DNA of 64,000 nt from Alphaproteobacteria bacterium (GTDB taxonomy: Bacteria > Pseudomonadota > Alphaproteobacteria > RF32 > CAG-239). The translations under genes and the position numbers were made by a program. This document shows positions 9,901 through 45,520 of this stretch, piece by piece; position 1 is the first letter of the stretch; every line of letters begins with the position of its first letter. The notes beneath the pieces were generated by a model, which was not told the DNA's origin, searched no databases, and saw nothing but the letters and a program-made list of their open reading frames with translations. The DNA lies in contig JAFUXF010000026.1 of the NCBI GenBank assembly GCA_017477185.1, positions 2,215 to 66,214 on the forward strand. Reading direction: 5' to 3'.

Positions 9901-10161
9901 GCCGACAGCCACACCTTGCGGAACCACGCCACCAATCACTTTGCCGTTAAAATCAACGATTAAACTGTCCGCGGTTACATTGCCCAGTAATTCATTTTTC
10001 AGCCCAACAACTTTACCATCAGGAATAACTTTACCGATAACTTCACCATTAAAATTTATTGCTGTAATTTCTTGCGCCGATGCTTCTGCGGCTGAAAAAA
10101 CGTTTATTCCGCCGATTAAACCAGCAATAACAATAAATTTTAACATCCATTTTTTTATCAT
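3913..10161 (-). CDS. virB10: giant VirB10/TrbI-domain protein (~2080 aa): signal peptide, ~1600 aa of degenerate 17-aa repeats, Gly-rich linker, VirB10 C-terminal barrel domain, Pro/Ser-rich tail (CagY-like architecture)
   Basis: The C-terminal segment IPAGSHLIGT, ISWERLIRPDGSMF, TADAQGRGGALGYLDQQLFKKY and YVPAGTRIIIYPNTDLW aligns motif-for-motif with the canonical VirB10 barrel (IPRGSLLVGEY / VVWNRLVRPDG / TDALGRAGLSGHVDNHWFERF / IPQGHEFQVY). The likely true start is the internal ATG at 10159..10161 (MIKKWMLKFIVIAGLIGGINVFSAAEASA-QE), which has an SD-like GGATGG upstream. The ORF track extends the frame to 10254. Confidence 0.85.
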   Translation of the reverse strand: MIKKWMLKFIVIAGLIGGINVFSAAEASAQEITAINFNGEVIGKVIPDGKVVGLKNELLGNVTADSLIVDFNGKVIGGVVPQGVAVGNDNKPLGKVGNDGTVRLPSGKIVARVLPNGLVIDEFFNIIGAVLFPGLIYSDDGQTIGRFTGNGTYSNLQGQEIGFVSADGYAFRRIGSDIALEGRLISSKMVVSNQGDFIGSIAPGGSVIDFEGKNIGHIKANGYVYNDSENIIGSIVRSKYAIDNRGKYLGFVTYNGEVFNKETLVGKMRSDGMVVKDSGEVIGSTIDIAATATDFSGTYLGRVLPEGKVARATEIIGYIGARGFVYGKDDELIGKVVNSGPVFDYKGTLTHQALKNGIVAKMDGTATGYMLGNIAYDNTGRVVGGSFDNILSVNSNNKILGIAGINGIVYDNGEKKFISPFGYMFTADGKNSGRCYRLSAIYDEKGSIDSYVMPSGDLQNKNAITVGKLTQAGISINERNEIIGKVLDIENVVNNQGELLGQIGVNNMVSRGDSYVAKILPDLSTVEDKAGSRNIISPKNGNAYNNAMVMNFSGNILGYTGVNGIVRDFTGSTLGKIINGRDVFDNNQVWVGQLVKYASIIDDKCEFLGVVTPRGYVRNYRDIVQGRILPNGQVVSEIGEYIGYAAFPNAMINFTGDIIGVVSANGQVLNYNNEVLGCVDRRGYLKNADGAVLAHQIEYYPVMNFKGQILGRTLLTGKVADSKNKIIGYMQPNGNVNSENGMPIGNLFKYRVAFNLQDKYIGYVGTDGQVTNSKGENLGQVDFYGNITNKGRNIGYALYDFYIYDLDNKVMGYITKEGNVLSPQGSHLGEMKQGFLIDKDNQLIGRGNRDFIIRDNSYQILGELTLKGELTDFNGEVLGLLNAKGEINSSTGKFIAKAHPLQYYHAQTYMTKLFDANGKFIGFVDAEGNVVDADGNIIGKLQDNGDVIDKDGNIIAQTTSDRYVYDENGNIIGKVLTDGTVVDMNGNVIGRVKSDGTVVDKDGKVIGHADISDLVFDKDGNVIGRVLPDGTVVDLAGNVIGMVRADGTVVDKDGNIIGQADVSKFAFDEAGNVIGRIMPDGTVVDKDGNIIGRADDDNLVYDLFCNVVGQVKIDGTVVNSAGKMIGMLSADGRVFDEKDKFLGTAHNHTLILDKSDNIIGKVKMDGVAVDKDDNVIGRLKLNGDVVNKRNKVIGQADAGNFIFNKSEQIIGRINREGMAFNKDRQMIGQINAQGNVVNRKGEVIGQTDITKFAFDKKGNILGKINLRGEIIDKNCKIVSPDTSDGTTVYIYDENGNIIGKILADGTAVDLDGNVIGKIQPDGTVVDADGNVIGYADVSTLAFDENGNVIGHVLSDGSVVDVNGKIIGKVQADGSVIDANGKIIGKVNKTSFAYDEDGNIIGRLLPDGTVVNLGGGLLGHLNAAGEIVDDEGKVLGTVDRANLVYDKDGNLIGRVLEDGTVVDLNGKKIGRVLPDGTVVDADGNVIGRANVSHLAFDEDGNVIGRILPDGTVVDFEGNVIGKVNSSGEIVDENGNVIGRVNANDLVFDENGNIIGRVLPDGTVIDLEGKVIGKVLDDGTVTDINGNIIGHRGRNKLLDPFDTIGRKKVWFSRSPKDKTTKLPKIGVSPEGTEKYRTALGVALTPDGEYLGDIMEDGTVVDKKGNQIGRRTPDGLIIDKEGGLIGIEESTRPQKGAEMFVPQGTFGHGGAYGTGTGPGTNLGPGGGFGPGERYDPQRAAALGAAQQIRRSGMSVGKISSNVDRRSFDGMQEDWSDQGISKTMSSWRVDMSEMILADKPIPAVIARSIDSNHPTPVTAYVERNVYAEEGRNIIIPAGSHLIGTLGGLTGTSETTSVSAKVDISWERLIRPDGSMFKFNGLTADAQGRGGALGYLDQQLFKKYTLPIMTTALTSYASYMMADDENSNGEVETPKQQAANDARENFLQDMNQIFEQILQDKANIKPLTYVPAGTRIIIYPNTDLWMRTEDRNPEGTGTGDDRRSPVLIDDKAVTDKRVREGSGQVVYSGSGGDTPSAAESAPTAKLVDDKPTQTTPAPASATGTLPPPPPPTTSSSSSSNSSIPQLF
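5300..9950 (-). repeat. in-frame degenerate tandem repeat array (~51-bp period; peptide unit ~DxxGNVIGRVLPDGTVV) inside the giant virB10 gene
   Basis: The protein track shows dozens of consecutive GN(V/I)IG(R/K)(V/I)xxDGTV(V/I)D units. The most regular copies are at ~5300..7260, and progressively degenerate copies run toward the N-terminus. The mirror-image plus-strand ORFs (PITLPSxSTTVPSG...) are the antisense reading of the same repeats. Confidence 0.65.
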
Positions 10162-10186
10162 ATTCCATCCAGCCTTTAATTTTTTA

Positions 10187-13100
10187 TCAGTTCCTACGGT
10201 TTTTAGCAACTTCCGGCAAAGCATACCCAGAAATCTGCTTATCCATATTAACAAATGAGCCGTTATTTTTTATGTATCCGCTTTCTTTTCCCATTTCGTC
10301 GACAACAATTCCTTTAGCATTCAATCTCCCGATATATTTGCCTTCATTATTCAATATTGTTGCTCCAATTTTATATATTTTCCCCAAAATATTTTCGTTA
10401 CTATCAACTGCTAAATCGTTAGAGACGACACGTCCGACAACGACACCGCTGTTGTTGGTAATTTTACCATCAAAATTAACATAGCCTACCATTTTATCTG
10501 AGTTATCAATAACAATATCGCCGTCCAAAATATCCCCATACAACTTTCCATTACTGCTGATAACTTGTCCATCAGATAACACTCTGCCGATAACGATATT
10601 TTCTTTGTCGGCAACGGCCCCATTGGGCAGTGTTACGCCAGCTAAATTACCACCGAAATCAATAATTGTACCTCGTTTAAGTAACGTCAAATTTTTATCC
10701 GATGAGCCACCAGGAAGAATTGCAGAAATAACCGTGTTATTCAAATCAAGAACGTCCCCTAATGTGTTTGTATATCCTTGATAATTTCCCCAAATATCTA
10801 CTAAAATATTTTCCGGTAATATTTCACCAATCAATTTTCCTTGTACATCAACAGCTTTACCATCGGAAGTCGTATGCCCGACAACTTTACCATTTACGCT
10901 CAAAATCTCACCATTTTTCAAGCTGTAGCCTAAATATTGACCATCATACCCTACCGCAGCCCCTGTTTTGACAAGACCTCCCAGATATTCTCCTTTGTCA
11001 TTAAAGAAATTACCTTTGCCATCTATTTTTCCAAGTATTGCCCCATACGGACTGACAACTTTTCCATCATAAGATACAAGCCCTAAGCCTTTACCATTGA
11101 AATCAACAACTTGTCCTTGCTCAACGGGAACACCTATTTGATGATTGAAAAATCCAAAACCATCACCTATAATTTTTCCTAAATTACCACCTCTCATATT
11201 ATAAACACTCCCATCAGGGAATAATCTTCCTAAAAATTCTCCTGAAGCATCTATAAAGGAGGTTTTTTCATTCATCAGCACGCCAATAACTTTATTTGAC
11301 GAATCAGCAACTAAATTATTTACAAAAATCTTTCCTGCTTCCTTACCGACTAATCCGATTTCTCCGTTAGAATCGACAATATTGAGGAAATTTCCATTTA
11401 AGTCATACGCATAATTTTTTTCAAGAACATGACCTATGTACTTTCCATCATCATCAAAAACATCGCCATTTATGCCAACGCATCCTATTATATCCGAATT
11501 TGAGGAAACAACGTGATTATCATCAGATATTCGTCCCAAAAACAAACCATCATATCCTATTGCAACACCTTGTTTTCTTATTGCTCCGACAATATCTCCC
11601 TGTTCGTTTAAAACTGTCCCGTCCGGATTTATACAACCGACATACGTTCCTTCCGGTGTTTTAACAATACCATCAGAACCAGCCTCTCCGAGATATACGC
11701 AATTATTATTATATACAGAACCGATTTTGCTTATCTCTCCCACATATTTTCCCGTACTGTCAACGACGACACCATCGAACATAATTTTCAGCTTGGTATC
11801 CGTTATCCCTTTCATAATTTTACCGTTTTTATCAAGGTATCCGATATTTTTACAGCCATACCCGACAGCCATGCCGCTTCGTACCAATTTACCAATAACT
11901 TCCGAACCTGCCGGATCTTTTACCAAACCATTTGCCAAAACCCTGCCTATAACTTGCCCTTCTTTTTCGACAGTTCCTTGATTAGAAATCGTTCCTAAAA
12001 CGCTACCATCAGGAGCTATCGGTAGCATTTGCATCTGCACCAAGGCACCAATACTCTTACTGAATCGGCTTATAATATTCCCTTGAGCATCAATGTAGCC
12101 GATTAATTGACCACTACCATCATAGATTTGACCATCTGATGTTGCATACCCGATAATTCGCCCATTTTTATCCAAAACAAGATTAACGAAATCCCCTGCT
12201 TTGCCGATAATATTACCATTGGCGTCAACCAATGTTCCATCATCAAGCATCTTCCCTAAAATATTTCCTTTAAAGTCCACAACATTTCCGTTTTCATCCA
12301 CATATCCTATGACGTTACCATCTTTATCATAGGCTAACCGCCGCAAATCATCAACACTCAACTCTGACGCATAACCGATGACATTACCATCTTTATCAAC
12401 AACTGTTCCATCAGAAAGAACTGTACCAATAATATTTCCATTGGCATCCACAACATTTCCGTTTTCATCAATATATCCTATCATATTGCCGTTTTTATCA
12501 TAAGCAATTTGCGGCCGATGTGCTGCTTTAGCTGTTCCGATAAGATTGCCTTTTGCATCGTAAATATTACCGTTTTTATCTATTTTACCAATAACGTTTC
12601 CGTTTAAATCCACCATGGTGCCATCCGGATTAACTTTTCCAACTAATTTTCCGTTGGCATCATACATATTACCGTCGGCATCAACATAGCCCATAATCTT
12701 ACCATTAGAATCATATAGAATCTGCTTGGCTGCCTGTTCAATATTTTTTGCTTTTCCGATTAGACGACCATTCGCATCATACATATTGCCGTCTTTATCT
12801 AATTTACCAATAATATTTCCTTTTAAATCAGTAATTGTTCCATCCGGATTAACCTTTCCTATCAGCCTACCGCTGGCATCATACATATTACCATCGGCAT
12901 CTATTCGACCAATAATATTGCCATTATTATCATACAAAATTTTTTCTTTATTTTTGGATGCTGCGGCTTTTCCAATAACGTTGCCATTATTATCCACCAC
13001 CGTGCCATCAGCCAACATCCGTCCTATAGCATTTCCATCCTTATCGACAACTGTTCCATCCGGATTAACATAACCAATGACTTTACCGTTAGCATCATAA

Positions 13101-14380
13101 ACTAATCGACGATTTTCGTCGGCATGCCCTTTTATATTTTTAGTAATAACATTGCCATCTTTGTCAATAAAGCCAACGACCTTCCCATCTTTATCAACGA
13201 CGCTGCCATCAGGCATCACAATACCTAAAACATGTCCGTCTTTATCTATTGCAACACGGCCTTGCTTACTGACGCGCCCGAGGATTTTTCCATCAAGTCC
13301 GATAACCTCACCATTCTTATTTAGGCGACCAATCACATTTCCTTCGCTATCAACCACACTACCATCTGATAAAACACGCCCGATAATATTACCATTTTCA
13401 TCATAAACAAAACCGGCATCAACAGCTTGTCCGATAACATTTCCATCGGCATCAACAACTGTCCCGTCAGGTAACGCTCTTCCTATTATTTTTCCGTTTG
13501 CATCAACAACCGTTCCATCTGCGAGAACTCTACCAATGACATTGCCATTTGCATCATAAACTAATCGCTGATTTTCTGCCACTCCAATAATATTGCCGTT
13601 TTCATCTACAATCATGCCATTGGCATTAACTCTTCCTATTACATTGCCATCGGCATCTCGAACATACCCGTCCTCATCTATTGTGCCAAGAATTTCACCA
13701 TTAGCTCCTATTGCATAACGAACATTTGTATTTGAAGCAGGTGTCCCCTTTGCTAACCCAAGACTTGTCGGATCACAAAAATTACAATCTTCTTTGAGAA
13801 TCGCTTTACCCTCAACAGGCACTTTTTGCGATTTATTGCTCCCTGAACTTAAATTAGCTTCACGCCATGTAATAATAAAATTATTTTGAACATTACCGGC
13901 AACGACAGGTACCCAGTTCATTGTTATATCACAAGTCTGATGACCTCTTAACACTTGGTTACTGCACTCTTCTTTGAACGAAAAGCCATCAAAAGGCGGC
14001 TCGGCTAGTTCAACCGAGACAATACGAACACTGACCCGTCCTGTTGTCCCTATCGTCAACACATTTTTAGCATCTGTTCCAATTACAACTTGCCCCATAG
14101 CGATAGGATTAGGTGTTGTTGTAATTGGTAATTCTCCATTATCAACCGTTTCAAATTCTATACTTTCCTGAATCGGGTCTTCACTCCGGATATCTAAGGC
14201 ATCATCACTTGCCGTAAATACCGGTGCCATATATTGCTCCTCTTCCTCCTCATCACGCATTAAAAGTAATAAACCAAGAATAAAAATGACTAAAGAAATA
14301 ACACCAACCATAATAATTATATGGTTAGTTTTTCTTACATAATTTTCTGATCTGGTTAAAATTTCTCTTTCATCTTTCAT
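10187..14380 (-). CDS. giant membrane-anchored repeat protein (1397 aa) with the same GNVIGRV..DGTVVD repeat family
   Basis: The N-terminus MKDEREILTRSENYVRKTNH plus TM IIIMVGVISLVIFILGLLLLM gives a type II anchor, like the VirB10 N-terminus. It is followed by an acidic stretch, a Cys-containing domain, then ~35 repeat units. The gene lies between virB9 and the giant virB10, separated from the latter by a 25-nt spacer. Confidence 0.7.
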   Translation of the reverse strand: MKDEREILTRSENYVRKTNHIIIMVGVISLVIFILGLLLLMRDEEEEEQYMAPVFTASDDALDIRSEDPIQESIEFETVDNGELPITTTPNPIAMGQVVIGTDAKNVLTIGTTGRVSVRIVSVELAEPPFDGFSFKEECSNQVLRGHQTCDITMNWVPVVAGNVQNNFIITWREANLSSGSNKSQKVPVEGKAILKEDCNFCDPTSLGLAKGTPASNTNVRYAIGANGEILGTIDEDGYVRDADGNVIGRVNANGMIVDENGNIIGVAENQRLVYDANGNVIGRVLADGTVVDANGKIIGRALPDGTVVDADGNVIGQAVDAGFVYDENGNIIGRVLSDGSVVDSEGNVIGRLNKNGEVIGLDGKILGRVSKQGRVAIDKDGHVLGIVMPDGSVVDKDGKVVGFIDKDGNVITKNIKGHADENRRLVYDANGKVIGYVNPDGTVVDKDGNAIGRMLADGTVVDNNGNVIGKAAASKNKEKILYDNNGNIIGRIDADGNMYDASGRLIGKVNPDGTITDLKGNIIGKLDKDGNMYDANGRLIGKAKNIEQAAKQILYDSNGKIMGYVDADGNMYDANGKLVGKVNPDGTMVDLNGNVIGKIDKNGNIYDAKGNLIGTAKAAHRPQIAYDKNGNMIGYIDENGNVVDANGNIIGTVLSDGTVVDKDGNVIGYASELSVDDLRRLAYDKDGNVIGYVDENGNVVDFKGNILGKMLDDGTLVDANGNIIGKAGDFVNLVLDKNGRIIGYATSDGQIYDGSGQLIGYIDAQGNIISRFSKSIGALVQMQMLPIAPDGSVLGTISNQGTVEKEGQVIGRVLANGLVKDPAGSEVIGKLVRSGMAVGYGCKNIGYLDKNGKIMKGITDTKLKIMFDGVVVDSTGKYVGEISKIGSVYNNNCVYLGEAGSDGIVKTPEGTYVGCINPDGTVLNEQGDIVGAIRKQGVAIGYDGLFLGRISDDNHVVSSNSDIIGCVGINGDVFDDDGKYIGHVLEKNYAYDLNGNFLNIVDSNGEIGLVGKEAGKIFVNNLVADSSNKVIGVLMNEKTSFIDASGEFLGRLFPDGSVYNMRGGNLGKIIGDGFGFFNHQIGVPVEQGQVVDFNGKGLGLVSYDGKVVSPYGAILGKIDGKGNFFNDKGEYLGGLVKTGAAVGYDGQYLGYSLKNGEILSVNGKVVGHTTSDGKAVDVQGKLIGEILPENILVDIWGNYQGYTNTLGDVLDLNNTVISAILPGGSSDKNLTLLKRGTIIDFGGNLAGVTLPNGAVADKENIVIGRVLSDGQVISSNGKLYGDILDGDIVIDNSDKMVGYVNFDGKITNNSGVVVGRVVSNDLAVDSNENILGKIYKIGATILNNEGKYIGRLNAKGIVVDEMGKESGYIKNNGSFVNMDKQISGYALPEVAKNRRN
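10300..13710 (-). repeat. in-frame degenerate tandem repeat array (same ~17-aa family) inside the 1397-aa gene
   Basis: Repeated DANGNVIGRVLADGTVVD / DENGNIIGRVLSDGSVVD-type units are visible in the translation. Degeneracy increases toward the C-terminus. Confidence 0.6.
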
Positions 14381-15970: not shown

Positions 15971-16720
15971 TTATTTTGATTTATTACGCATTAAAGAATA
16001 TTGTACCACTGTAAATCCTACAGGATTATTCAAACGATCATTAAACTTGACAGATTTTCGGCGATAAACCACACGCAAAGATGCTGTCCAATAATTAATC
16101 TCCGGTGCAGATGATGACGGATACATATCTGTCGTTTCGTATTCTACTTGCCACAAACCGCGTCCCAGCTCATTAACTGTCAAAATATTAACTCTTCGCT
16201 GTAATCCTCTTTGTCGAACCAAATCTAAAGCTCGCCTAGCCGTTTTATTAATAAACTCATCATATACAGCAGATGATGACATTTCCTGAATTGGACCACC
16301 CGGAAGCCAGCGAACTTCCATTTCTGCCTCATCATTAACAATTGTGCTGCGTTGGAGAACATAACTTCGAACAAATGTTTCCGTAATGGATTTGTTTTCG
16401 ACTAAATCTCCACTGTAAGGTACAATATTATATATTTGTTCTTCTTTATTTTGAAATGTCAGCAAATACGGCTCAACTCTAAACAAAGGAATAACCTGAG
16501 CAATAGCAAGTAACAAAACAATATTACAGCATAAACTGACAACCATGATAACAGCAAAAGCACGCGCTGTCCACAAATAACGTTTTTCGTTATTATTTGC
16601 AACAAACACATTTTCTTGTTGAGGACGGCGCATTTGAGAACGCGAACTATTGTTCAGATTTGCTCTGCCTATCAGTTTCTGCTCGCTATTATTACCAAGC
16701 TGATTTGCCATCTGTCGCAT
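15971..16720 (-). CDS. virB8: VirB8-family protein (paralogue 2; bitopic, NTF2-like)
   Basis: Single TM (FAVIMVVSLCCNIVLLLAIAQVIPLF) after a cytoplasmic N-terminus. The C-terminal signature NNPVGFTVVQYS matches the VirB8 NPxGFxVxxY motif. Confidence 0.8.
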   Translation of the reverse strand: MRQMANQLGNNSEQKLIGRANLNNSSRSQMRRPQQENVFVANNNEKRYLWTARAFAVIMVVSLCCNIVLLLAIAQVIPLFRVEPYLLTFQNKEEQIYNIVPYSGDLVENKSITETFVRSYVLQRSTIVNDEAEMEVRWLPGGPIQEMSSSAVYDEFINKTARRALDLVRQRGLQRRVNILTVNELGRGLWQVEYETTDMYPSSSAPEINYWTASLRVVYRRKSVKFNDRLNNPVGFTVVQYSLMRNKSK

Positions 16721-17013: not shown

Positions 17014-17769
17014 TTATAAACCCTCTACTTGAGTTTGCGAATAACGAAGAACTGTAAAGCCTAACGGATTGATAAGACGCATACCGGAAAACATACGCTC
17101 TTTAATAAATACTGCCGTGATTGAAGCTGTCCAATACCGAACTGTCATTAACATATCTTGCGAAACATTATTTGTTTCTTTAGGGCTCAGCATATAAGTC
17201 TTAAAATCAACTTTCCAAACGGGACTATGTTGTCCACCGATACGGCGTACCGCAATAATTTCTGTTTCTTGTACAATGCCCTTACCGATAACATCATTCC
17301 ATAGTTTATCTCTGTAAACTGAAAATTCATCAAAAACATATGGGGAAGACAGAAAATTTACCATACCTCCCGGCAACCATCTGTTACGCATTTCTATTTC
17401 ATCGTTTATAATGGTATTGCGCAACTCTATATATTGGCGAATATACATATCGACCAATTTATCTCTTGAGGGCATATTTATCCCTATGCTTTCTGCACGC
17501 ACAATACCTTCACTGCTATCCTGAGATACTACTAAAAACGGCTTTACCGTTACTTGCGGGGCTAGTCGAAAAAGGGCTAGTGATGCGCTGGTAAATAAGG
17601 ACAAAGACAATATGGTTAAAAAAATGAAAAAACGCACTAACCACATATAATACTTGAGTTTAAAGTTTTTTTCATCTTGTTCATATTGTTCGATAAATTC
17701 CAGACGGTGTTCTCTATTTCCATCTGTAATTTCTAAAATTCGACTTCCTTCTAGTTTATTTACAGCCAT
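17014..17769 (-). CDS. virB8: VirB8-family protein (paralogue 1)
   Basis: TM FFIFLTILSLSLFTSASLALF. C-terminal INPLGFTVLRYS VirB8 signature. Clearly diverged from the second copy, so both are likely functional. Confidence 0.8.
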   Translation of the reverse strand: MAVNKLEGSRILEITDGNREHRLEFIEQYEQDEKNFKLKYYMWLVRFFIFLTILSLSLFTSASLALFRLAPQVTVKPFLVVSQDSSEGIVRAESIGINMPSRDKLVDMYIRQYIELRNTIINDEIEMRNRWLPGGMVNFLSSPYVFDEFSVYRDKLWNDVIGKGIVQETEIIAVRRIGGQHSPVWKVDFKTYMLSPKETNNVSQDMLMTVRYWTASITAVFIKERMFSGMRLINPLGFTVLRYSQTQVEGL

Positions 17770-38012: not shown

Positions 38013-39707
38013 TTACCATTTTTGATAATACTTTTTCCACTCCTCATCCTCTTTAGGCCCTTGCGCCGCATTCACTATCTTTACGGTTCTTACAACAAAT
38101 GAATTAGGCTCTCTATCAACAAATGCAGTATTTATCTTTTGATAATCGACGCCATTTGCCGTCAGAATATTATAGAGCATATTAAGGCGTTTTTGCTGCA
38201 AGGCAAACGACTTTGAGCCATCTATACGAATCTCCAACCCCACATCCTTATCATCGACAGCTTTTTTCGCAAATGCCTGTATCCAACGCAACGTCTGCCC
38301 CGAAATTTCTGCCCGATTGGGCTGAAAAGACAACCTGATTTCAGTTGGTAAAATGACTATTTTTTCTTCATCTTCGGTCTGTTTTTTACTTTTTAGGAGA
38401 TTATTTCCTTTTGCTTTCAGCTTCTTGATTGCTTTTTCTCTGTTTTCCTTCGAAAAGACAGAGGAAAGACTATCCAATATGGATTTTTCTTTTGTATTCT
38501 TAACAGTTTTCGTCTTTGTTTTCTTTTTCGGTATAGGAGTTATTTGTCCTTCATCATCACTGATATCTGGAACCAAATCATCTTCATCCAGCAAATCCTG
38601 CGGAATAGGAATCAGCAGATTATCCTGAACTGCAATTTTGGCTGTCTTTTTTTCTAAACTTACTTTATTTTTAGCAATAAGTCCTTCCGCTTTCTTTTTA
38701 GCCGCCTCTGACGAAAAACCTTCTTTTAGAATTTTTTTATTCTTAATAAACTTACTTCCCCGAGCAACAAGCCATGGATTATCGTCTTTATGCTTTTCAG
38801 CCATTGTTTGCCACTTTCTTTTTTGCGGCCGGTCATTACCAACAACTTCCTCCGATGCAGTTAACGACACATTTTCACCTAAACTGGCAACTTGTGACGG
38901 CTCAGGCATCTTCTTTTCTTCTGCCGTCTTAGTGTTTCCCTGCAACGGGATACTCTTCTCTTCTTCTTGCAAAACCTCCTTAACCTGTTCATCCACGGTG
39001 TTTTGATTTTCCGCGGCTTTCTTTTCCTTATATTTTTTGAGATTATCAATTTTGAAAATTTGCTTTGTTGCCTTTATCATAATCGGACCACTCTGCTCAC
39101 TCAAAACAATAGGTTTATGATTTTCGATTTTAGCAGCACTCTCTTCCTCTTTTGCAGGACTTTCCGATTTATCACCAGATAAAGCAATTTGACTCTCTTC
39201 TACCGTCGGTTTTTCCGAATCAAAATCTCCGGAATAAACCAATGGCATATCCGGAATATTATTTAACTCCTCCTGCTTATCTGCGTCTGGAATTTTTTCA
39301 ACAAACAGAGGGATTTCCTCTGCAGTTGCCTCATCTTTTTCCTCTTCTTTTTGAAGTTTAAGAGGCATATTATATGCTACCTTCACCTTTTCTGCCTGAA
39401 TGGGCGGAGATTCAAGGGTTTCCTGATAAACAGGTTCCGATTTTAAGGCGTGTGCGTATAGTTGCGGAGACCGGAAAAACAATGAAATATTTTTACGAGG
39501 GATTTGTACATCATTCTTCGGCGTTTGAGGGGTATAAAAAAACGCTCTGTCCACACCAATAACCACGGACAAAGTAATCACAAAACTATACACGAATGTT
39601 TTGAACCCTATTCTGGTCATAAAACAAACCCCTCGTATTTTAGATAAAATAAACTGCGACTCTTGGCAAGCACATATCATTTTATGCACAATCTTTTTCT
39701 TAATCAT
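38013..39707 (-). CDS. first gene of the array: N-terminally anchored 564-aa K/E-rich protein with a possible C-terminal OmpA/MotB-like domain
   Basis: TM FVYSFVITLSVVIGV near the N-terminus. The start may be internal (MTRIGFKTF at ~39620). The charged, low-complexity middle is followed by C-terminal GLEIRIDGSKSFALQQKRLNMLYNILTANGVDYQKI, which loosely fits peptidoglycan-binding OmpA-like domains. Confidence 0.45.
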   Translation of the reverse strand: MIKKKIVHKMICACQESQFILSKIRGVCFMTRIGFKTFVYSFVITLSVVIGVDRAFFYTPQTPKNDVQIPRKNISLFFRSPQLYAHALKSEPVYQETLESPPIQAEKVKVAYNMPLKLQKEEEKDEATAEEIPLFVEKIPDADKQEELNNIPDMPLVYSGDFDSEKPTVEESQIALSGDKSESPAKEEESAAKIENHKPIVLSEQSGPIMIKATKQIFKIDNLKKYKEKKAAENQNTVDEQVKEVLQEEEKSIPLQGNTKTAEEKKMPEPSQVASLGENVSLTASEEVVGNDRPQKRKWQTMAEKHKDDNPWLVARGSKFIKNKKILKEGFSSEAAKKKAEGLIAKNKVSLEKKTAKIAVQDNLLIPIPQDLLDEDDLVPDISDDEGQITPIPKKKTKTKTVKNTKEKSILDSLSSVFSKENREKAIKKLKAKGNNLLKSKKQTEDEEKIVILPTEIRLSFQPNRAEISGQTLRWIQAFAKKAVDDKDVGLEIRIDGSKSFALQQKRLNMLYNILTANGVDYQKINTAFVDREPNSFVVRTVKIVNAAQGPKEDEEWKKYYQKW

Positions 39708-39741
39708 TTTTTTTATTTTTTTGTTTTTTAGCTAAAAATCT

Positions 39742-39769
39742 CTTGATTTTTACCCTTTTAAATTATAAT
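39742..39769 (+). promoter_or_regulatory. sigma70-like promoter candidate for the tRNA-Arg gene (TTGATT, ~15-16 nt spacer, perfect TATAAT)
   Basis: cTTGATTtttacccttttaaatTATAATc ends 15 nt before the tRNA 5' end. The AT-rich palindromic -10 could also serve the divergent minus-strand operon. Confidence 0.3.
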
Positions 39770-39784
39770 CAAAAAAAACGAGGT

Positions 39785-39861
39785 GTCAGCGTAGCTCATC
39801 AGGATAGAGCACCAGTTTCCTAAACTGGGGGCAGTGGGTTCAAGTCCCGCCGCTGACGCCA
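39785..39861 (+). tRNA. tRNA-Arg (anticodon CCT)
   Basis: Hand-folded cloverleaf. Acceptor stem GTCAGCG/CGCTGAC. D arm GCTC-ATCAGGAT-AGAGC. Anticodon stem CCAGT/ACTGG with loop TTCCTAA (anticodon CCT). T arm GTGGG-TTCAAGT-CCCGC. Discriminator G, encoded CCA. Confidence 0.85.
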
Positions 39862-40273
39862 TTTTTTAACTATTTGCTTTTCCTATCATCTTATTGACGG
39901 TATCGTTTAGTTTATCTTGCGGATCATCAACTCCCAAATTAACATATATTTGTGTGCTTTGCAGAAATTTATGTGTGAAAGCTCGCTTTACCATAAAAGC
40001 ACCAGCACCATTTGGCGTAATTTGCAGAGAAAGTCCTTTTTCTTCTGTATCATAAAAAATATCCTTTTATTAGGGGTTGCTAAGTCTTTGATAGTAGCTT
40101 TTGTAACCTTAAATTTGTTTTTCTCTCTTGCGTTTCTGGTGCCTAAAATTTTAGTAAATTCAGTAAAATTCAATCCAATCAAAAAATTTTAAAAATACGA
40201 GTTTTTCTGTGTAAAACAGTATATTATAAGTAATTTAGGAAAGCAAGAAAAATCTAAATAAAACACTATGCCA

Positions 40274-40312
40274 CAGTTTAGGAAACTGGTGCTCTATCCT
40301 GATGAGCTACGC
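40274..40312 (-). repeat. 39-nt inverted partial copy of the tRNA-Arg 5' half (D arm to anticodon stem), a pseudo-tRNA fragment
   Basis: cagtttaggaaactggtgctctatcctgatgagctacgc is the exact reverse complement of tRNA positions 39791..39829. Identity stops abruptly on both sides. Confidence 0.7.
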
Positions 40313-40560
40313 CGGTGCATAAAGCCTTTATAATCTACCATAAAGATATTTGCAAGGCAGCTTTTTAATATATTTATCTGTGTCGGGTATTTGATATTAT
40401 TGATGGAATAAAGTTTATCGTATGTTTGATAATAGATTTTTCTATCTTCAAAAGAGCTAAGCTGATTTTTATAAAAAATATTTTCGAATTTTGTTGTATT
40501 TATTTTATTAGCATATATAATATCATCATTAGTTTATTACTATTTGATTAGGAGATTTAA

Positions 40561-42081
40561 ATGACAAGAAAATTAAAGGTCATGTTTTCTACGCATGGTT
40601 TGGTAGAAGGTGACTTTGCTTTTGATACTGATGATAAAGGATATACGATTACCCGAGTTGTTTCAAAAAAAGTTATTACTGGTCAAGATACTGGGGGACA
40701 AGTCTATTATGTTAAGGCTTTAGCGACGAGTTCTAATAGCTATGATGTTGATCTTGTAACACGCCGTGTTGACCCTCGAATTTGTCCTCAATTTGGAGGA
40801 ACTTACAGAGAATTAGGCAACAATATTAATTATACAATTGAAACACAATGGCACGAAAGCTCTAAAATTCGTAGTCGTGTTTTACGGGTACCTGCCGGAG
40901 GGAATTTTATGTTTATTCCTAAAGAGGAAATTGTTCCTTTGCTTCCGGAACTTGTTGATAATTTATTTGATTTTTATAAACGGGAAAAACGACTTGAAAA
41001 TATTGAAGTTGTTGAAGGACATTATCGCGATGGAATGCTGGCGGCAGATATGCTATGCACCAAAATCTCAGACGAAACGGGTCATCGTCCGGTCATGCTC
41101 GTTACGAGCCATTCTCTCGGGCACAAAAAATATGAGCGTAATCTTCCTCTTTATGAAAACGGAATGATTAATGAAACCGAATGGAAATGGCACAATTTTG
41201 AGGATCGAATTGCCCATGAAAAATATACTTTTGATAAGGCAGATATTATTATTGCAACTTCACCGGATGAACAAACAAGATTGCTGGCAGCTCCTTATTT
41301 GCAAGATATCAATAAAATTACAGTAATTCCCCCCGGTTATAATGACAAAGTTTTTAGTCCTTTGTCTTTACAAGAAAAAAATAAATTGAAGCATCAATTT
41401 GAATACAAAGATTTAGACGGAGCCGTTCGTCATATTGATTTGACAGGTAAAAAAATTGTTTCTTCTTTAGGGCGTGTTGTTCGAGATAAAGGCTTTAGCG
41501 AGTTATCCCGCTCTATGGTTGAAATTATGAAAGAAGATCCCTCTGTTTATTATATGCTCAGCGGAGAAAAGGATAACCCTGTTACGGAAGAATGTCGAGA
41601 TATTCTTAAAGGATTTGAAGAGCGCGTTATTTTCTTGCCATCTCTTAATCAGGCAGAAATGGCTCGTGTATATAGAGTATCTACAATTTTTATAATGTCT
41701 AGCTTAAACGAAGCTTTTGGAATGGTTCCCATTGAAGCGATGGGGTGCAAAACGGCTGTTATTGTTGGGCGTAGCGGGTTTAATGATTTTGCGCATTGTG
41801 CTGATATCCGTGACGATAGTTTAGATTTTTCCAAAACCATCGGGATTTATGCGCCTTCTCAAGAGTCTGATCGTTGGCGACAAGTTAAAGCATTAAAACT
41901 TCTTTTAAATGATCAGGATTTATGCACTCAGATTTCTGAAAACGGTTATAATTATGCCAAAAATAATTTAACGTGGGAGATGATTTCAACGCAAAAGGAT
42001 CAGCTTGTTCAAAAAAAGCTGACATCACGTTTGCAATCTTTTAATTTTAAAAATTTAGCAAATAATGATTTACAATATTAA
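40561..42081 (+). CDS. GT4 glycosyltransferase of the sucrose-phosphate-synthase / mannosylfructose-phosphate-synthase type
   Basis: LVTSHSLGHKKYERNL...DKADIIIATSPDEQ parallels the SPS motif TGHSLGRNKLEQ...ELVITSTRQE. GT-B C-terminal domain with the EAFGMVPIEAMGCKTAVIV nucleotide-sugar binding motif. Confidence 0.8.
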   Translation: MTRKLKVMFSTHGLVEGDFAFDTDDKGYTITRVVSKKVITGQDTGGQVYYVKALATSSNSYDVDLVTRRVDPRICPQFGGTYRELGNNINYTIETQWHESSKIRSRVLRVPAGGNFMFIPKEEIVPLLPELVDNLFDFYKREKRLENIEVVEGHYRDGMLAADMLCTKISDETGHRPVMLVTSHSLGHKKYERNLPLYENGMINETEWKWHNFEDRIAHEKYTFDKADIIIATSPDEQTRLLAAPYLQDINKITVIPPGYNDKVFSPLSLQEKNKLKHQFEYKDLDGAVRHIDLTGKKIVSSLGRVVRDKGFSELSRSMVEIMKEDPSVYYMLSGEKDNPVTEECRDILKGFEERVIFLPSLNQAEMARVYRVSTIFIMSSLNEAFGMVPIEAMGCKTAVIVGRSGFNDFAHCADIRDDSLDFSKTIGIYAPSQESDRWRQVKALKLLLNDQDLCTQISENGYNYAKNNLTWEMISTQKDQLVQKKLTSRLQSFNFKNLANNDLQY

Positions 42082-42097
42082 AAAGTACACTAAGAAA

Positions 42098-42126
42098 CCG
42101 CTGACATAAAGTCGGCGGTTTTTTTC
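42098..42126 (+). terminator. rho-independent terminator (ccgctgac-ataaa-gtcggcgg plus T8)
   Basis: 8-bp GC-rich stem with one G-U pair, 5-nt loop and a run of T residues directly after the GT4 stop. Confidence 0.7.
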
Positions 42127-42207
42127 TTTACTTTTTGTCAAAAAACTGCTAAATCAGGATTACAAAACAATTATTTTATTCATTATTTATTTTTAAAACT
42201 TATTATT

Positions 42208-43776
42208 ATGGCAACAAAAAAACATCTGAACAATGAGGTAATCTATCAGATTTACCCATTAACTTTTGCTTATGCCTCGGGAAGTCAAACAGATCCTTAC
42301 CCGAGTGGTGCTTATGGAAATCTCAAAGGAATTACATCGCGTGTTAAGTATGTTGAATCTCTTGGGGTGGACGCAATCTGGATTACGCCTTTTTATAAAT
42401 GGGGCGGTAACGGCTTTGGCTACGATATGGTTGATTATTGCTCCGTTGATCCGATGTATGGTAATTTGGATGACTTTAAGGAGCTTTGCGAAACCTATCA
42501 TCGACATGGTATCCGTGTTTTGATAGATCAAGTCTACAATCACTGTTCCATCTATCACCCGTGGTTTATTCAGAGTGAAGAGCGAAAATTAGGTTTTGAA
42601 GACTTCTTTGTCTGGGCAGATGCCAAAGGCTTTGATAAAAACGGACGACCTATTGTCCCGAATAACTGGACATCAATCTGGGATTCTTCGGGCAACAGCG
42701 CATGGATGTGGAGCGATACCAGAAAGCAATTCTACATGCACTCCTTTGACTACACAATGCCAAACTTAAACCTCAACAATCGCCGCGTACAGAACGAGAT
42801 ACTGAAAGTGGCTGAATTTTGGTTTGACTTAGGTGTTGACGGTTTCCGTCTTGACGCTGTAACACATTATGCTTGTGACCCTCAGCTCAGAGACAATCCG
42901 TTGGATGAAAAAGGTCATCAAATCCGCCGCTATGATATCAATTCATTGGGAGGTGCCGAGTTCATCAACCGATTGAAGGATCTGTGTAATACCTATGAAG
43001 TTCCGAAAACACTTCTGGCGGAGTACTGGTATGATAAGTCCCCTAAAGGCTTTGCAAAGGCAAAGAAGATTCTGGCAGAGAGTGGGTGTGATGCTTTCTT
43101 TACCGGTGCATTGAATCGCGGGTTAAAAGGTCTGGCAGATTCGTTGCGGGACGAAATGCGTGTTTCTCCGAATGGCGAAAAACTCAATTGGGCTTTTTCC
43201 AACCATGATTTGGAGCGAGCTCCGAGCCGCATTTTCGGGAATCAGCACTCTGTGCAAAGGAGTAAGTTGCTGATGAGCCTGCTGATGGTTCTCCCCGGAA
43301 GTATCTGTATTTTCCAAGGTGAGGAGCTGGGCTTACCCAATCCCCAAAGCATGGATGAGTGCAAGAATCCGAACAATGATCCCTTGGGCATCTGGACGGA
43401 TTTTAACAGTCCGTGGGATGCTGCTCGTGCCGGTTTTGCCATGAGTGACAGCCCCGATGATCCGAGCCGTCAGTTGGCTTTGCATCCCTCTGAGGAGCAG
43501 TATAAATATGCTGTTTCCCGACAGTGGACGACGGAATCCATGCTCGAACACACGAGAAAATGTATTTATTTTCGCAGAGGAAGCCGTTTCTTTAGTGGGT
43601 ATGGCACCATCATTCCGCTGAAGGTTAAAAAGGCAAATGTTATCGCCTTCGTACGCACGGATGAGGATGACAGATCTCGTTGTCTTTGTATTTTTAACTT
43701 CAATAAATATCCTGTTGAAGTGAAATATAAAGGGACGCGACACATTGTCCGTGGGGAAGATTATATCCTTGGTTAA
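42208..43776 (+). CDS. GH13 (alpha-amylase family) enzyme: alpha-glucosidase / sucrose-hydrolysing or phosphorylase-like
   Basis: VIYQIYPLTF...GNLKGITSRVKYVESLGVDAIWITPFY and DQVYNHCS, GFRLDAVTH, FSNHD are the conserved GH13 regions I-IV. Paired with the SPS-like GT, this suggests compatible-solute or disaccharide metabolism. Confidence 0.85.
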   Translation: MATKKHLNNEVIYQIYPLTFAYASGSQTDPYPSGAYGNLKGITSRVKYVESLGVDAIWITPFYKWGGNGFGYDMVDYCSVDPMYGNLDDFKELCETYHRHGIRVLIDQVYNHCSIYHPWFIQSEERKLGFEDFFVWADAKGFDKNGRPIVPNNWTSIWDSSGNSAWMWSDTRKQFYMHSFDYTMPNLNLNNRRVQNEILKVAEFWFDLGVDGFRLDAVTHYACDPQLRDNPLDEKGHQIRRYDINSLGGAEFINRLKDLCNTYEVPKTLLAEYWYDKSPKGFAKAKKILAESGCDAFFTGALNRGLKGLADSLRDEMRVSPNGEKLNWAFSNHDLERAPSRIFGNQHSVQRSKLLMSLLMVLPGSICIFQGEELGLPNPQSMDECKNPNNDPLGIWTDFNSPWDAARAGFAMSDSPDDPSRQLALHPSEEQYKYAVSRQWTTESMLEHTRKCIYFRRGSRFFSGYGTIIPLKVKKANVIAFVRTDEDDRSRCLCIFNFNKYPVEVKYKGTRHIVRGEDYILG

Positions 43777-43787
43777 CGATAAAAAAA

Positions 43788-43816
43788 CCGCTGACACAAA
43801 GTCAGCGGTTTTTTTA
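43788..43816. terminator. bidirectional rho-independent terminator (ccgctgac-acaaa-gtcagcgg, T-run / A-run) between convergent genes
   Basis: Perfect 8-bp stem flanked by A7 upstream and T8 downstream. It lies between the GH13 stop (43776) and the M20 peptidase stop (43819) and is a near-copy of the hairpin at 42098..42126. Confidence 0.75.
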
Positions 43817-43818
43817 TA

Positions 43819-44925
43819 TTATTTTCCAGCTAATTTATCTAAGAACTTAATCTGAATATCCGCTAATTTTTCAACGCTGTCAATAACCACATATTCTCCA
43901 CTGGCGTGCATTCCCTCGCCTGTTCCTGAGTGCATAATCACAATTGACCCTTTAACGGCAAATGAGCGCGAATCCGTTGCCCCTCCGATATGTTCAAACT
44001 CTATTTTCTGTCCTAAGATATTTTCAGCAAACTCTTTGTAATCCAAAATATACGGATTATTCTCATCCATGACAACCGGAGTGCTTTCAGAAACAATTTT
44101 ATAAGTCACGCCTTTTTCCATACACTGATCAAGATTTTTCCTTAAATCGGCAACGCTTGACGTTTCTGTTAATCTGAAATCACACAAGGCTTCTGCATGA
44201 TTAGAAATAATATTAGAAACGTCCCCCCCCTTAATTGAGGCAAAATGGACCGTATCTTGCCATTTGTTTTTCGGCTCAGGTAATTCTTTTGAATAATAAG
44301 GATAAAGTTTGCGAATATTGGCACAAGTCATCATCAATTTTTCATTGGCATCAATCCCTTCCCAAGGCGTAGAACCGTGAGCTTCAAGCCCTTCAGCAAT
44401 AATTTTAACAAAAACGGGATTTTTGCATTTGCTGACAATTTTTAGGATATCGCCGCCGACATCATTATCTAAGACTATTTTTGCTTGAATATTCGGATGA
44501 GCATTCATGAATGCGTGCGTACTGTTGCTTCCTTTTTCTTCATCGGTAGATAAAATAATACCGAATTTTAAGTTCAACTTGTTTTCTAAAACATGAAACA
44601 TAGAATTAAAAGCAACCGCGGCAAAAGATTTCATATCCAAAGTCCCGCGCCCGTACATTTTTCCATCTTTAATAAAAGGAGAAAACATCTCATCTGCAGC
44701 AGGAACAACGTCCAGGTGTCCTAAAACAATAACATCAAACTCCTCAACATCTTGATTGCGTATAAAAAGAACCGGAGAAGTATCCTTATAGCGGCAGACA
44801 TCAACAACAGCTCTGCTTCCTTTAAAAAGGTTTTGACAGTACGCCATACACTTATCAATTTCTGCTAAATTTCCGGTTTCTGTTCTGAATTGGATTAAGT
44901 CTTTAATGGTTTCTAATAAATTCAT
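43819..44925 (-). CDS. M20-family metallopeptidase (ArgE/DapE-type deacylase)
   Basis: Metal-binding motifs VLGHLDVVPA and GRGTLDMKS. Further His/Glu positions fit M20 dimetallic hydrolases. Confidence 0.8.
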   Translation of the reverse strand: MNLLETIKDLIQFRTETGNLAEIDKCMAYCQNLFKGSRAVVDVCRYKDTSPVLFIRNQDVEEFDVIVLGHLDVVPAADEMFSPFIKDGKMYGRGTLDMKSFAAVAFNSMFHVLENKLNLKFGIILSTDEEKGSNSTHAFMNAHPNIQAKIVLDNDVGGDILKIVSKCKNPVFVKIIAEGLEAHGSTPWEGIDANEKLMMTCANIRKLYPYYSKELPEPKNKWQDTVHFASIKGGDVSNIISNHAEALCDFRLTETSSVADLRKNLDQCMEKGVTYKIVSESTPVVMDENNPYILDYKEFAENILGQKIEFEHIGGATDSRSFAVKGSIVIMHSGTGEGMHASGEYVVIDSVEKLADIQIKFLDKLAGK

Positions 44926-45010
44926 GTTTTTTCCTCATGTTTTACGTTTTCTTCACAATCTTGGGATATATTAGGCTTAATATAATAAAAAATGATTAAA
45001 ATACGAGGAT

Positions 45011-45520
45011 GTGATGAAAAGGATTTTCTTTGCTTGTTTATTGGCCCTGTTTTCCTTTAATGCTAGCGCAGAGGGCTTACCTGATGAAGGAGAAAGCGGT
45101 TTAGCTTTGCCCAGAATGGTATCTTTGCGTTCTAACATGATAAACGCACGTTCCGGTCCGGGAGCAAGGTATCCGATTTCTTGGGTATATCGTCAAAAGG
45201 GGGCTCCGGTTGAAATTACTGCAGAATTTGAGTTGTGGCGGAAAATTAAAGACTGGAAAGGCTCAGAATCTTGGGTTCATAAATCTATGCTGACGGGGAA
45301 AAGGAGTATTAAACTTATTACTCCGGGAGAAAGCAATATTTATGAGTATCCGGATTATAATTCAAAGGTTATTGCTCGTGCTGAGGAGGAAGTTGTCGGA
45401 ATGATAAAAAAATGTCCTACAGGTAAAACTTTTTGTTTAGTCAATTTTGAAAATAAAATTGAAGGATGGGTTCCTAAAAGCAATGTTTTTGGGGTTTATC
45501 CCGATGAAGTCATTGATTAA
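45011..45520 (+). CDS. secreted SH3b-domain protein
   Basis: Signal peptide MMKRIFFACLLALFSFNASA. The INARSGPGARYPISWVYRQKGAPVEITAEF...WRKIKDWKGSESWVHKSML bacterial SH3 pattern is present twice. Confidence 0.6.
   Translation: MMKRIFFACLLALFSFNASAEGLPDEGESGLALPRMVSLRSNMINARSGPGARYPISWVYRQKGAPVEITAEFELWRKIKDWKGSESWVHKSMLTGKRSIKLITPGESNIYEYPDYNSKVIARAEEEVVGMIKKCPTGKTFCLVNFENKIEGWVPKSNVFGVYPDEVID

Follow-up and report, generated by a model that had tools for sequence, protein, structure and literature searches.

A probable scar of a tRNA-targeting integrative element, with a flipped tRNA-Arg(CCT) gene, beside a chromosomal secretion and pilus array of a gut alphaproteobacterium

The DNA described here is a 64,000-nt stretch of contig JAFUXF010000026.1 from an alphaproteobacterium, referred to throughout as the window, and the features of interest surround its sole tRNA gene, a tRNA-Arg(CCT) at 39785-39861 on the plus strand (found by ARAGORN, and by Rfam as RF00005 with 61.7 bits). 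On its left side a long gene array encoding a VirB-type type IV secretion system (T4SS) and a type IVb pilus comes to an end, and on its right side lie the remnant of an integrase gene and an inverted, partial copy of the same tRNA, followed by a GT4 glycosyltransferase gene and a GH13 alpha-amylase-family gene. An earlier note on this DNA had placed the tRNA gene next to the array and had read the locus as a scar of integration or rearrangement; this reading is borne out by the integrase remnant between the tRNA and the fragment, and by a tRNA block that is inverted compared to syntenic relatives. The parts of the scar and the spacer beyond it are as follows.

39733..39867, plus strand: native tRNA block, comprising about 50 nt upstream (promoter), tRNA-Arg(CCT) and a T-run (blastn, L082/L083)
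39785..39861, plus strand: intact tRNA-Arg(CCT) gene (ARAGORN, Rfam RF00005)
39866..40131, minus strand: dead P4-type tyrosine integrase (translations, P0053/P0054 homology, HMMER, alignment)
40132..40272, minus strand: putative integrase promoter/leader and integrase-proximal attachment (att) arm, the P arm (nhmmer, promoter scan, layout compared with relatives)
40271..40312, minus strand: inverted tRNA-Arg fragment, nt 5-46, an internal piece of the 5' half (repeat search, blastn, alignment)
40313..40560, no strand: 248-nt spacer of unassigned origin, with the fragment's outer junction at tRNA nt 4/5 (no blastn matches)

A repeat search recovers the tRNA copy as a pair of inverted arms at 39789-39830 and 40271-40312, 42 nt in length, 98% identical and with 440 nt between them. 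The exact portion is 39 nt long (40274-40312) and corresponds to tRNA nt 5-43 in the ARAGORN numbering; the exact inverted copy reported previously therefore stands, and only its assignment to nt 7-45 has to be corrected. The single mismatch in the 42 nt is a G to T change at nt 44, in the stem abutting the P arm, and tRNA nt 1-4 and 47-77 are missing from the fragment. Chance can be excluded as the source of the repeat, as its 17-nt core is expected 0.01 times in the window and four metagenome assemblies from this species (L001-L004) agree at 100% identity across 39700-40560; the independence of these four assemblies likewise excludes an assembly artefact, and two short-read Logan contigs stop precisely at the repeat. 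There is no second copy of the tRNA 3' part, and no direct 3' att repeat, within the 64 kb, and at a relaxed threshold Rfam finds nothing but the tRNA in 39600-40700. The exact 39-mer has no match among 185,579 species genomes, and a 26-mer search of the JGI metagenomes gave 52 loci, almost all of them from unrelated lineages; the sole relative among them, L059, has a tRNA that matches at 76 of 77 positions, in an unrelated context and with no fragment. We also note a marine metagenome contig (Ga0098035_1089547, L045 118-371) in which a 5' fragment of one tRNA-Arg(CCT) allele, approximately nt 1-44, precedes by about 130 nt an intact tRNA-Arg(CCT) gene that differs in sequence and has the same orientation, and which looks like a replacement of the tRNA 5' part of the 5'-fragment class.

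The segment between the tRNA and its fragment had been described as AT-rich and as encoding only a spurious small open reading frame (ORF). It is not unusually AT-rich compared to the rest of the window, and its minus strand holds a frameshifted and internally deleted integrase gene with an att arm upstream. The minus strand of 39866-40182 reads in two frames, ..NKFKVTKATIKDLATPNKRIF and YDTEEKGLSLQITPNGAGAFMVKRAFTHKFLQSTQIYVNLGVDDPQDKLNDTVNKMIGKANS*, and 4 nt separate the stop codon (TAA, 39866-39868) from the terminal CCA of the tRNA. Pfam gives no significant family for the frameshift-corrected remnant, and it was identified because of its homologues and a full HMMER search. A word-indexed search for homologues returned only two short proteins, P0053 (86 aa) and P0054 (62 aa), and a HMMER search with P0053 then returned 107 proteins, most of which have 380-450 aa and align in two separate stretches, with query residues 1-50 matching the N-terminus and residues 30-86 the last ~55 residues of the full-length proteins. 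The best match is P0055 (387 aa, 2e-31), which, like P0061, contains an Arm-DNA-bind_3 domain (PF13356) and a Phage_integrase domain (PF00589), the P4-type architecture. The window remnant corresponds to about 45 N-terminal residues of the arm-binding domain fused to the last ~50 residues, the catalytic-Tyr region; it is homologous at both termini to the integrase clade of L019-L029, and 39884-40012 shares 76-78% nucleotide identity with L019-L025 (blastn).

The deletion junction of the remnant lies at about 40005-40015 and some 295 internal amino acids are gone. Residues ~49-336 of P0055, including the TGxR and HDLRH catalytic boxes, are missing from both the remnant and P0053 in the alignment, such that the catalytic Arg and His-X-X-Arg motifs are lost and the Tyr-bearing tail STQIYVNLG stays. 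Only the first ~45 of the ~85 residues of Arm-DNA-bind_3 are present, and a 1-nt deletion at 40054/40055 relative to L018 throws the remnant into its two frames. With an incomplete arm domain, deleted catalytic residues and a broken frame, the window integrase is non-functional. In the full-length genes both endpoints of the deletion fall in a microhomology, AAYGGRGCT, encoding ..PNGA.. and ..ANGA.. respectively. A tblastn search of phage records with the mini-integrase gave noise only, and an integrase-profile scan of viral contigs found relatives with at most 35% identity and trimmed flanks, which are uninformative on att geometry.

The short relatives of the remnant are of interest in themselves. 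P0053 is an intact 86-aa ORF (L018 559-819) located beside an HTH/HipA-like pair, a different context from that of the window, and it has the same N/C-terminal fusion junction as the window remnant (..ITPNGA|DAF..), which could reflect a single ancient deletion that has since spread, or deletions recurring at AAYGGRGCT. Truncated N- and C-terminal pieces of this integrase clade are numerous in gut-alphaproteobacterial contigs (L012-L017, with P0054, and also P0058, P0059, P0060, P0062, P0066 and P0067), and suggest that such elements decay frequently.

The integration geometry of the family can be read from a related-locus search with P0055, which gave 11 loci, all in gut or rumen metagenome-assembled genomes of Alphaproteobacteria/Rhodospirillales; none of the 11 has an intact tRNA within 10 kb. 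Nine of these loci (L019-L028) are full-length and include the integrase start, and in all nine the 3' portion of a tRNA, from the anticodon stem to the CCA, is found as its reverse complement 180-205 nt upstream of the integrase gene (int). The displaced tRNA is tRNA-Met(CAT) in eight of the nine and tRNA-Lys(TTT) in the other. The layout of the arm is also fixed in 9/9, with a 7-nt loop, a 5-nt stem, 8 nt and then GTTT(T/C), and the arm-side stem is TCTTG in L023-L028 irrespective of the target tRNA. Because TCTTG is constant whichever tRNA is targeted, the stem is element sequence, with exchange in or beside the loop; integration in this family is evidently centred on the anticodon, and a displaced 3' fragment is as expected from that. 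As a general rule an integrating element restores the tRNA that it splits (PMC4383910), from which a regenerated intact tRNA would be predicted at the cargo end of these elements, convergent with int.

On the integrase strand the window reads CACCAGT-TTCCTAA-ACTGT-GGCATAGT-GTTTTATTTA..., with GTTTTATTTA at 40255-40264 and the 8-nt linker at 40265-40272. GTTTTATTTA is identical to L023-L025 at 10/10 positions, the spacing from the loop to GTTT is as in the relatives, and the nt-44 mismatch sits in the arm-side stem, which is element-specific in the relatives. Further along the same strand are a promoter-like TTTACA-18-TAAAAT (40215 to 40186), from a promoter scan, and a GCACCAG leader motif (40136-40142); nhmmer with a profile of the relatives' upstream regions aligns 40186-40136 with a weak E-value of 0.18, and pairwise shuffle statistics are weak too. 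The window departs from the relatives on the outer side of the int-proximal core, where it has the loop in the sense orientation together with nt 27-5 of the 5' half, whereas they have the loop in antisense together with the 3' half; an outer flank made of antisense 3' sequence from the target tRNA, a feature of the clade, is thus not seen in the window, and the anomaly is limited to this one side. The intact tRNA abutting the 3' end of int occupies the place that the family predicts for the regenerated tRNA, provided that all of the cargo has been lost.

The leaders of the related integrase genes contain an additional feature. In L019-L028, tandem repeats of GTAGCACC(A/G)GCGTAGCACC or GCGGCACC, spaced by 10 nt and present in 2-3 copies, are located 35-45 nt upstream of the integrase ATG, between the integrase promoter and the start codon, and may be operator or arm-type sites; the window counterpart is at 40136-40142. 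The GCGTAGC of these repeats is also the sequence of tRNA-Arg nt 5-11, and GCACCG|GCGTAGC is what is read at the fragment's outer junction, a weak and marginal resemblance that we note as a lead only. Two origins for the outer flank were considered. The 248 nt of 40313-40560 have no homology to tRNA-Arg promoters (shuffle p=0.26-0.95), nor to any fetched locus by blastn, and a decayed ancestral tRNA promoter was dropped for this reason; a second copy of the integrase promoter/leader is no more than a lead, as only the 13-mer GCACCGGCGTAGC resembles the repeat of the relatives, nhmmer finds nothing there, and the shuffle p values are marginal.

The orientation of the tRNA becomes informative when the genes on either side are compared with those of related species, and these flanking features are listed here.

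38013..39707, minus strand: 564-aa ORF as listed, which opens the type IVb pilus operon; context, outside the scar (ORF list)
39560..39701, no strand: left edge of the rearranged interval, formed by the conserved pilus-operon leader and 5' end (blastn)
40561..42081, plus strand: GT4 (SPS-like) glycosyltransferase (Pfam Glycos_transf_1)
42208..43776, plus strand: GH13 alpha-amylase-family gene, right edge of the rearranged interval (Pfam Alpha-amylase, 8e-77)

The 564-aa first gene is followed by TcpQ, secretin, PilO, T2SSE and T2SSF genes, and its orthologues (P0162, P0163, P0167, P0173 and P0164) head the operon in the five contigs of related species that make up the comparison set (L082-L084, L165 and L166), with 68%, 71% and 55% identity in L082, L083 and L084, respectively. 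The true start is probably an ATG at about 39623, since the orthologues are called from the equivalent ATG; the 77-nt gap previously given between the array and the tRNA holds for the ORF as listed (start 39707), but would grow to ~160 nt with the start used by the orthologues. The operons of the relatives encode TcpQ-like, secretin, PilO, ATPase and platform proteins, and in four of the five contigs (L082, L083, L084 and L165) they lie beside the housekeeping genes of the window, namely GH13, M20 peptidase, SH3 protein, methyltransferase, response regulator, RsmE and cmk; in L166 only M20 and SH3 are visible beside the pilus operon. Neither an integrase nor a tRNA fragment is found in any of the five.

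In L082 and L083 the tRNA-Arg(CCT) lies within a gap of 300-350 nt between the pilus operon and GH13. The two edges of the corresponding interval in the window are conserved, with 39560-39701 being 92% identical to L082 and L083, and 81% to L084, colinear with the pilus gene, and 42229-42299 being colinear with L082 and L083 at 79-82% identity (both by blastn). Between these edges, 39733-39867 matches L082 7819-7951 and L083 4005-4139 at 88%, in the opposite orientation relative to both flanks, and the 60 nt upstream of the window tRNA are homologous to the tRNA-Arg promoters of L082, L083, L059 and L165. The adjacency of GH13 and tRNA-Arg(CCT) is conserved, and the two genes are divergent in L082, L083 and L165; in L165, a more distant relative that serves as outgroup, the tRNA-GH13-M20-SH3 block is flipped relative to the pilus operon and the tRNA is still divergent from GH13. 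Because both close relatives and the outgroup have a divergent tRNA, this is evidently the older state, and the functional tRNA of the window has been flipped. The fragment keeps the old orientation, that of the whole tRNA in the relatives, divergent from GH13, and also keeps the GH13-proximal side. The window tRNA differs from those of L082, L083 and L165 at nt 48 alone, which is 3' of the anticodon loop, in the part that an element would supply.

The region upstream of the pilus operon has been rearranged repeatedly, as neither tRNA-Arg nor GH13 is present at this position in L084 and L166. We note separately that the tRNA-Arg/GH13/M20/SH3 block is inverted as a unit with respect to the pilus operon between groups of species (L165 2274-7611, L084 6157-9623 and L166 175-3596, compared to L082, L083 and window 39560-45520).

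The GT4 gene occurs at this locus in the window species only, with none between the tRNA and GH13 in L082, L083 or L165, and together with the scar it makes up ~2.3 kb that have no counterpart in L082 and L083. Of the SPS-like/GH13 module, suggested earlier to belong to a mosaic accessory region, only GT4 is extra, GH13 being a conserved neighbour of the tRNA. GT4 was also considered as cargo of the element, and was excluded as it falls outside the tRNA-to-fragment interval under every model. Nor was it of use as a synteny anchor, a role in which the pilus gene worked, as its orthologues in L007, L008 and L010 are in unrelated, non-syntenic contexts with no tRNA-Arg nearby. The neighbourhood of the SPS-like gene differs in each relative examined (L007, L008 and L010/L011), it has GH13 as a neighbour only in the window species, and in L010 and L011 it is located ~150 nt from a tRNA-Ser(CGA).

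Our preferred interpretation, held with moderate confidence, is that 39733-40312 marks the scar left by a small integrative element, now dead, whose P4-type tyrosine integrase acted at the tRNA anticodon stem-loop, that the tRNA block was rearranged by recombination in inverted alignment followed by repair, and that the array is ancestral. The anticodon stem-loop, CCAGT-TTCCTAA-ACTGG (tRNA nt 28-44), has a stem, CCAGT/ACTGG, that is a perfect 5-bp palindrome, and as a consequence the core is the same in both senses save for the central three loop bases. An element with a P4-type integrase would have recombined at this stem-loop, and we infer that recombination at the quasi-palindromic stem took place in inverted alignment, this first step being due either to the integrase, in a wrongly oriented integration or inversion, or to a template switch for which the stem served as primer. 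Such an event would join the P arm to the tRNA 5' half, as the window shows, and would leave on its other side an unstable 3'-3' palindrome of two tRNA 3' halves. Breakage of the palindrome, and its repair by copying the promoter and 5' half from the other core, would then yield a functional tRNA in the flipped orientation with loss of the chromosomal 3' fragment. Loss of the cargo, the ~295-aa microhomology deletion and the 1-nt frameshift would be later events, and a further, separate one would have placed the 248 nt and the GT4 gene at the outer end of the fragment. The proposal would account for the flipped tRNA block, for the orientation and position of the fragment, and for the missing 3' fragment. 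As a generalization, we speculate that integrases of this clade recombine at the anticodon stem-loop in either alignment, and that a reversed event with palindrome repair flips the tRNA, although we regard this broader claim as improbable.

Several points weigh against this interpretation. First, no intact family member specific for tRNA-Arg was found from which to read the attP site and how its core is oriented with respect to the arms. Secondly, homology of the P arm is carried by short motifs, as the whole-window profile reaches E=0.18 in the promoter/leader and gives no match in the core-proximal part; in addition, 40255-40270 are weakly similar to a tRNA variable loop and T stem (TAGTG), such that another reading of the inner junction is possible. 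Thirdly, the history needs multiple steps, namely an inverted recombination and its repair, loss of the cargo, an internal deletion and the insertion of GT4, and leaves the fragment's outer junction at nt 4/5 unexplained. Lastly, the argument from polarity comes from three relatives only, and the single difference at nt 48 is thin evidence.

Of the alternatives, the one that survives best is a canonical integration of the 3' class and, after it, a purely replicative rearrangement without the integrase, in which the unit inverted comprises the element, the tRNA 5' part and the promoter, and nt 27-5 are added by snap-back insertion primed on the stem. This fits the inverted partial duplication at the inversion junction, the lost chromosomal 3' fragment, the position of the junction exactly at the 5-bp palindromic stem, and the repeated rearrangement of the locus in the lineage. 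However, the inner junction is also the site-specific crossover point of the family, which favours the integrase, and an independent signature of template switching is lacking at the locus. We consider this history possible but doubtful, and note that it overlaps the explanation preferred above and differs from it in the catalyst alone.

A second alternative is a canonical integration of the '5'-fragment class', with an attP that includes the tRNA 5' part and a promoter, the fragment then being the chromosomal 5' piece that such an integration normally displaces, beside int, and an independent, in-place inversion of the 133-bp promoter-tRNA block at a later time. It has in its favour that the fragment is sense-oriented upstream of int, in the ancestral orientation and proximal to GH13, and that a 5' fragment is displaced in 159 of 3919 (~4%) mapped tDNA islands (PMC4383910). 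It is nonetheless unlikely, as all nine full-length relatives displace the 3' fragment, with the loop antisense to int, and the window tRNA differs from those of its relatives in the 3' part and not the 5' part, with a promoter homologous to their chromosomal promoters; moreover, an exact inversion of the tRNA block and the break at nt 4/5 would still require explanation.

The earlier note had gone further and proposed that the ~40-kb array is itself a genomic island or integrative and conjugative element at tRNA-Arg, bounded by the tRNA, with the fragment as a rearranged att site at the boundary. The array does end beside the tRNA gene, with the fragment and the integrase remnant close by, and by Pfam it encodes a VirB-type T4SS, with VirB4, two VirB8, VirB9/CagX-like and VirB11 proteins and giant TrbI/VirB10-like proteins with beta-flower repeats, in addition to the type IVb pilus. 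However, the array is 5' of the tRNA, the wrong side for an element integrated at a tRNA gene, and the integrase remnant and att arm are 3' of it. The pilus operon occurs in L082, L083, L084, L165 and L166 without an integrase and with the same housekeeping genes wherever the flank is visible, and its first gene has more than 690 homologues in the lineage. Pfam finds neither a relaxase nor a type IV coupling protein among the ORFs of 1-39707, where several large ORFs are without matches and the array runs past the left edge of the window. Direct tRNA repeats, suggested as markers of an island boundary, are absent from the 64 kb, and the proposed check on composition shows continuity across the tRNA, with a GC content of 0.35-0.42 throughout and a tetranucleotide correlation of r=0.96 between left and right. 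We conclude from the side of the tRNA, the syntenic pilus operon without an integrase, the continuous composition and the lack of a direct 3' repeat that the array is not a tRNA-bound island, and an island origin is very improbable; the pilus-bearing relatives that lack the fragment further indicate that the fragment is uncoupled from acquisition of the array. On this comparative evidence the array is an ancestral, conserved chromosomal neighbour and not an integrated element, the contigs of the relatives covering its pilus part, with the VirB part lying beyond the fetched flanks.

Some components of the T4SS are unusually large. These include a 2113-aa protein of the TrbI/VirB10 type (3913-10254, minus strand) and a 1397-aa paralogue (10187-14380, minus strand), both packed with beta-flower (PF21785/PF21784), DUF3659 and RHS repeats. 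The two VirB8 paralogues are encoded at 15971-16720 and 17014-17769.

Hardly credible is a functional role for the 42-nt arms, whether they bound an invertible switch ahead of the pilus/T4SS operon or supply, in the plus-strand copy, an anti-tRNA segment to a long GT4 leader: inverted repeats do flank a 440-bp segment by a recombinase-derived gene and the start of the pilus operon, and a promoter-like site at 40088-40115 (plus strand) could read through the fragment toward GT4, but the recombinase is dead, inversion would break the acceptor stem of the tRNA, the four assemblies, from different samples, have a single orientation, Rfam has no family in the region besides the tRNA, and the relatives lack the fragment.

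The main value of these findings is corrective, in that the array of T4SS and type IVb pilus genes in this alphaproteobacterial lineage of the ruminant gut appears to be a conserved chromosomal feature and not a recent tRNA-bound island, and is to be studied within the core biology of the lineage. The scar itself documents a tRNA fragment that violates the rules of island mapping for end fragment, side and orientation, yet is linked to an integrase remnant and an att arm. If the inverted-alignment mechanism is true, it would explain the flipping of tRNA genes by tRNA-targeting elements and local rearrangement hot spots, and the 'wrong-orientation' tDNA fragments discarded by island finders as false positives would include real events, which would argue for retaining such configurations in island-mapping pipelines.

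The array and the scar can each be compared with known systems. The array resembles loci for an R64-type thin pilus (type IVb, PilL-V) and a VirB-type T4SS, with TcpQ/PilM-like, PilN secretin, PilO, PilQ ATPase, PilR and PilS homologues and then those of VirB4, B8, B9, B10 and B11. It differs from them in being chromosomal and syntenic across species, in having no relaxase, coupling protein, shufflon or Rci that could be seen, and in that it faces the tRNA with the operon's promoter end. The fim-like and shufflon-like invertible switches share with the window the presence of inverted repeats, but here the recombinase is dead and one orientation is seen in the four assemblies.

Inversions with inverted duplications at their breakpoints, and the SbcCD-provoked repair of long palindromes, are known processes. 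The window is similar in having a flipped 133-bp block bordered by a 42-nt inverted duplication, and in the 3'-3' tRNA palindrome that is predicted for it; it differs in that one of its junctions is a site-specific recombination core, and the intermediate is inferred. P4 Int and CP4-57 IntA are examples of P4-type tyrosine integrases, with Arm-DNA-bind_3/DUF4102 and Phage_integrase domains. The full-length relatives P0055 and P0061 share this architecture, and their clade targets tRNA genes, whereas of the window copy, which is frameshifted, only ~45 N-terminal and ~50 C-terminal residues are left. Among the E. coli examples of this type int follows the intact tRNA, and in the gut-alphaproteobacterial clade, by contrast, int diverges from the displaced 3' fragment.

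The closest comparison is with the tDNA-integrated genomic islands defined by Islander (Hudson, Lau and Williams 2015, PMC4383910). As in those islands, a tyrosine integrase gene, here a pseudogene, lies between an intact tRNA and a cognate tRNA fragment, and the crossover is centred on the anticodon as in the Islander 'A' class. The differences are in the fragment, which in the islands is an end fragment (usually 3') in the same orientation and on the correct side, and in the window is an internal piece (nt 5-46) of the 5' half, inverted and downstream of the tRNA, and in size, with 2-200 kb and cargo in the islands compared to an interval of 0.5 kb and no cargo here. The window locus would thus fail the Islander filters for internal fragments, configuration, orientation and length (PMC4383910), and a decayed, non-canonical variant of the known tyrosine-integrase islands in tRNA genes describes it best.

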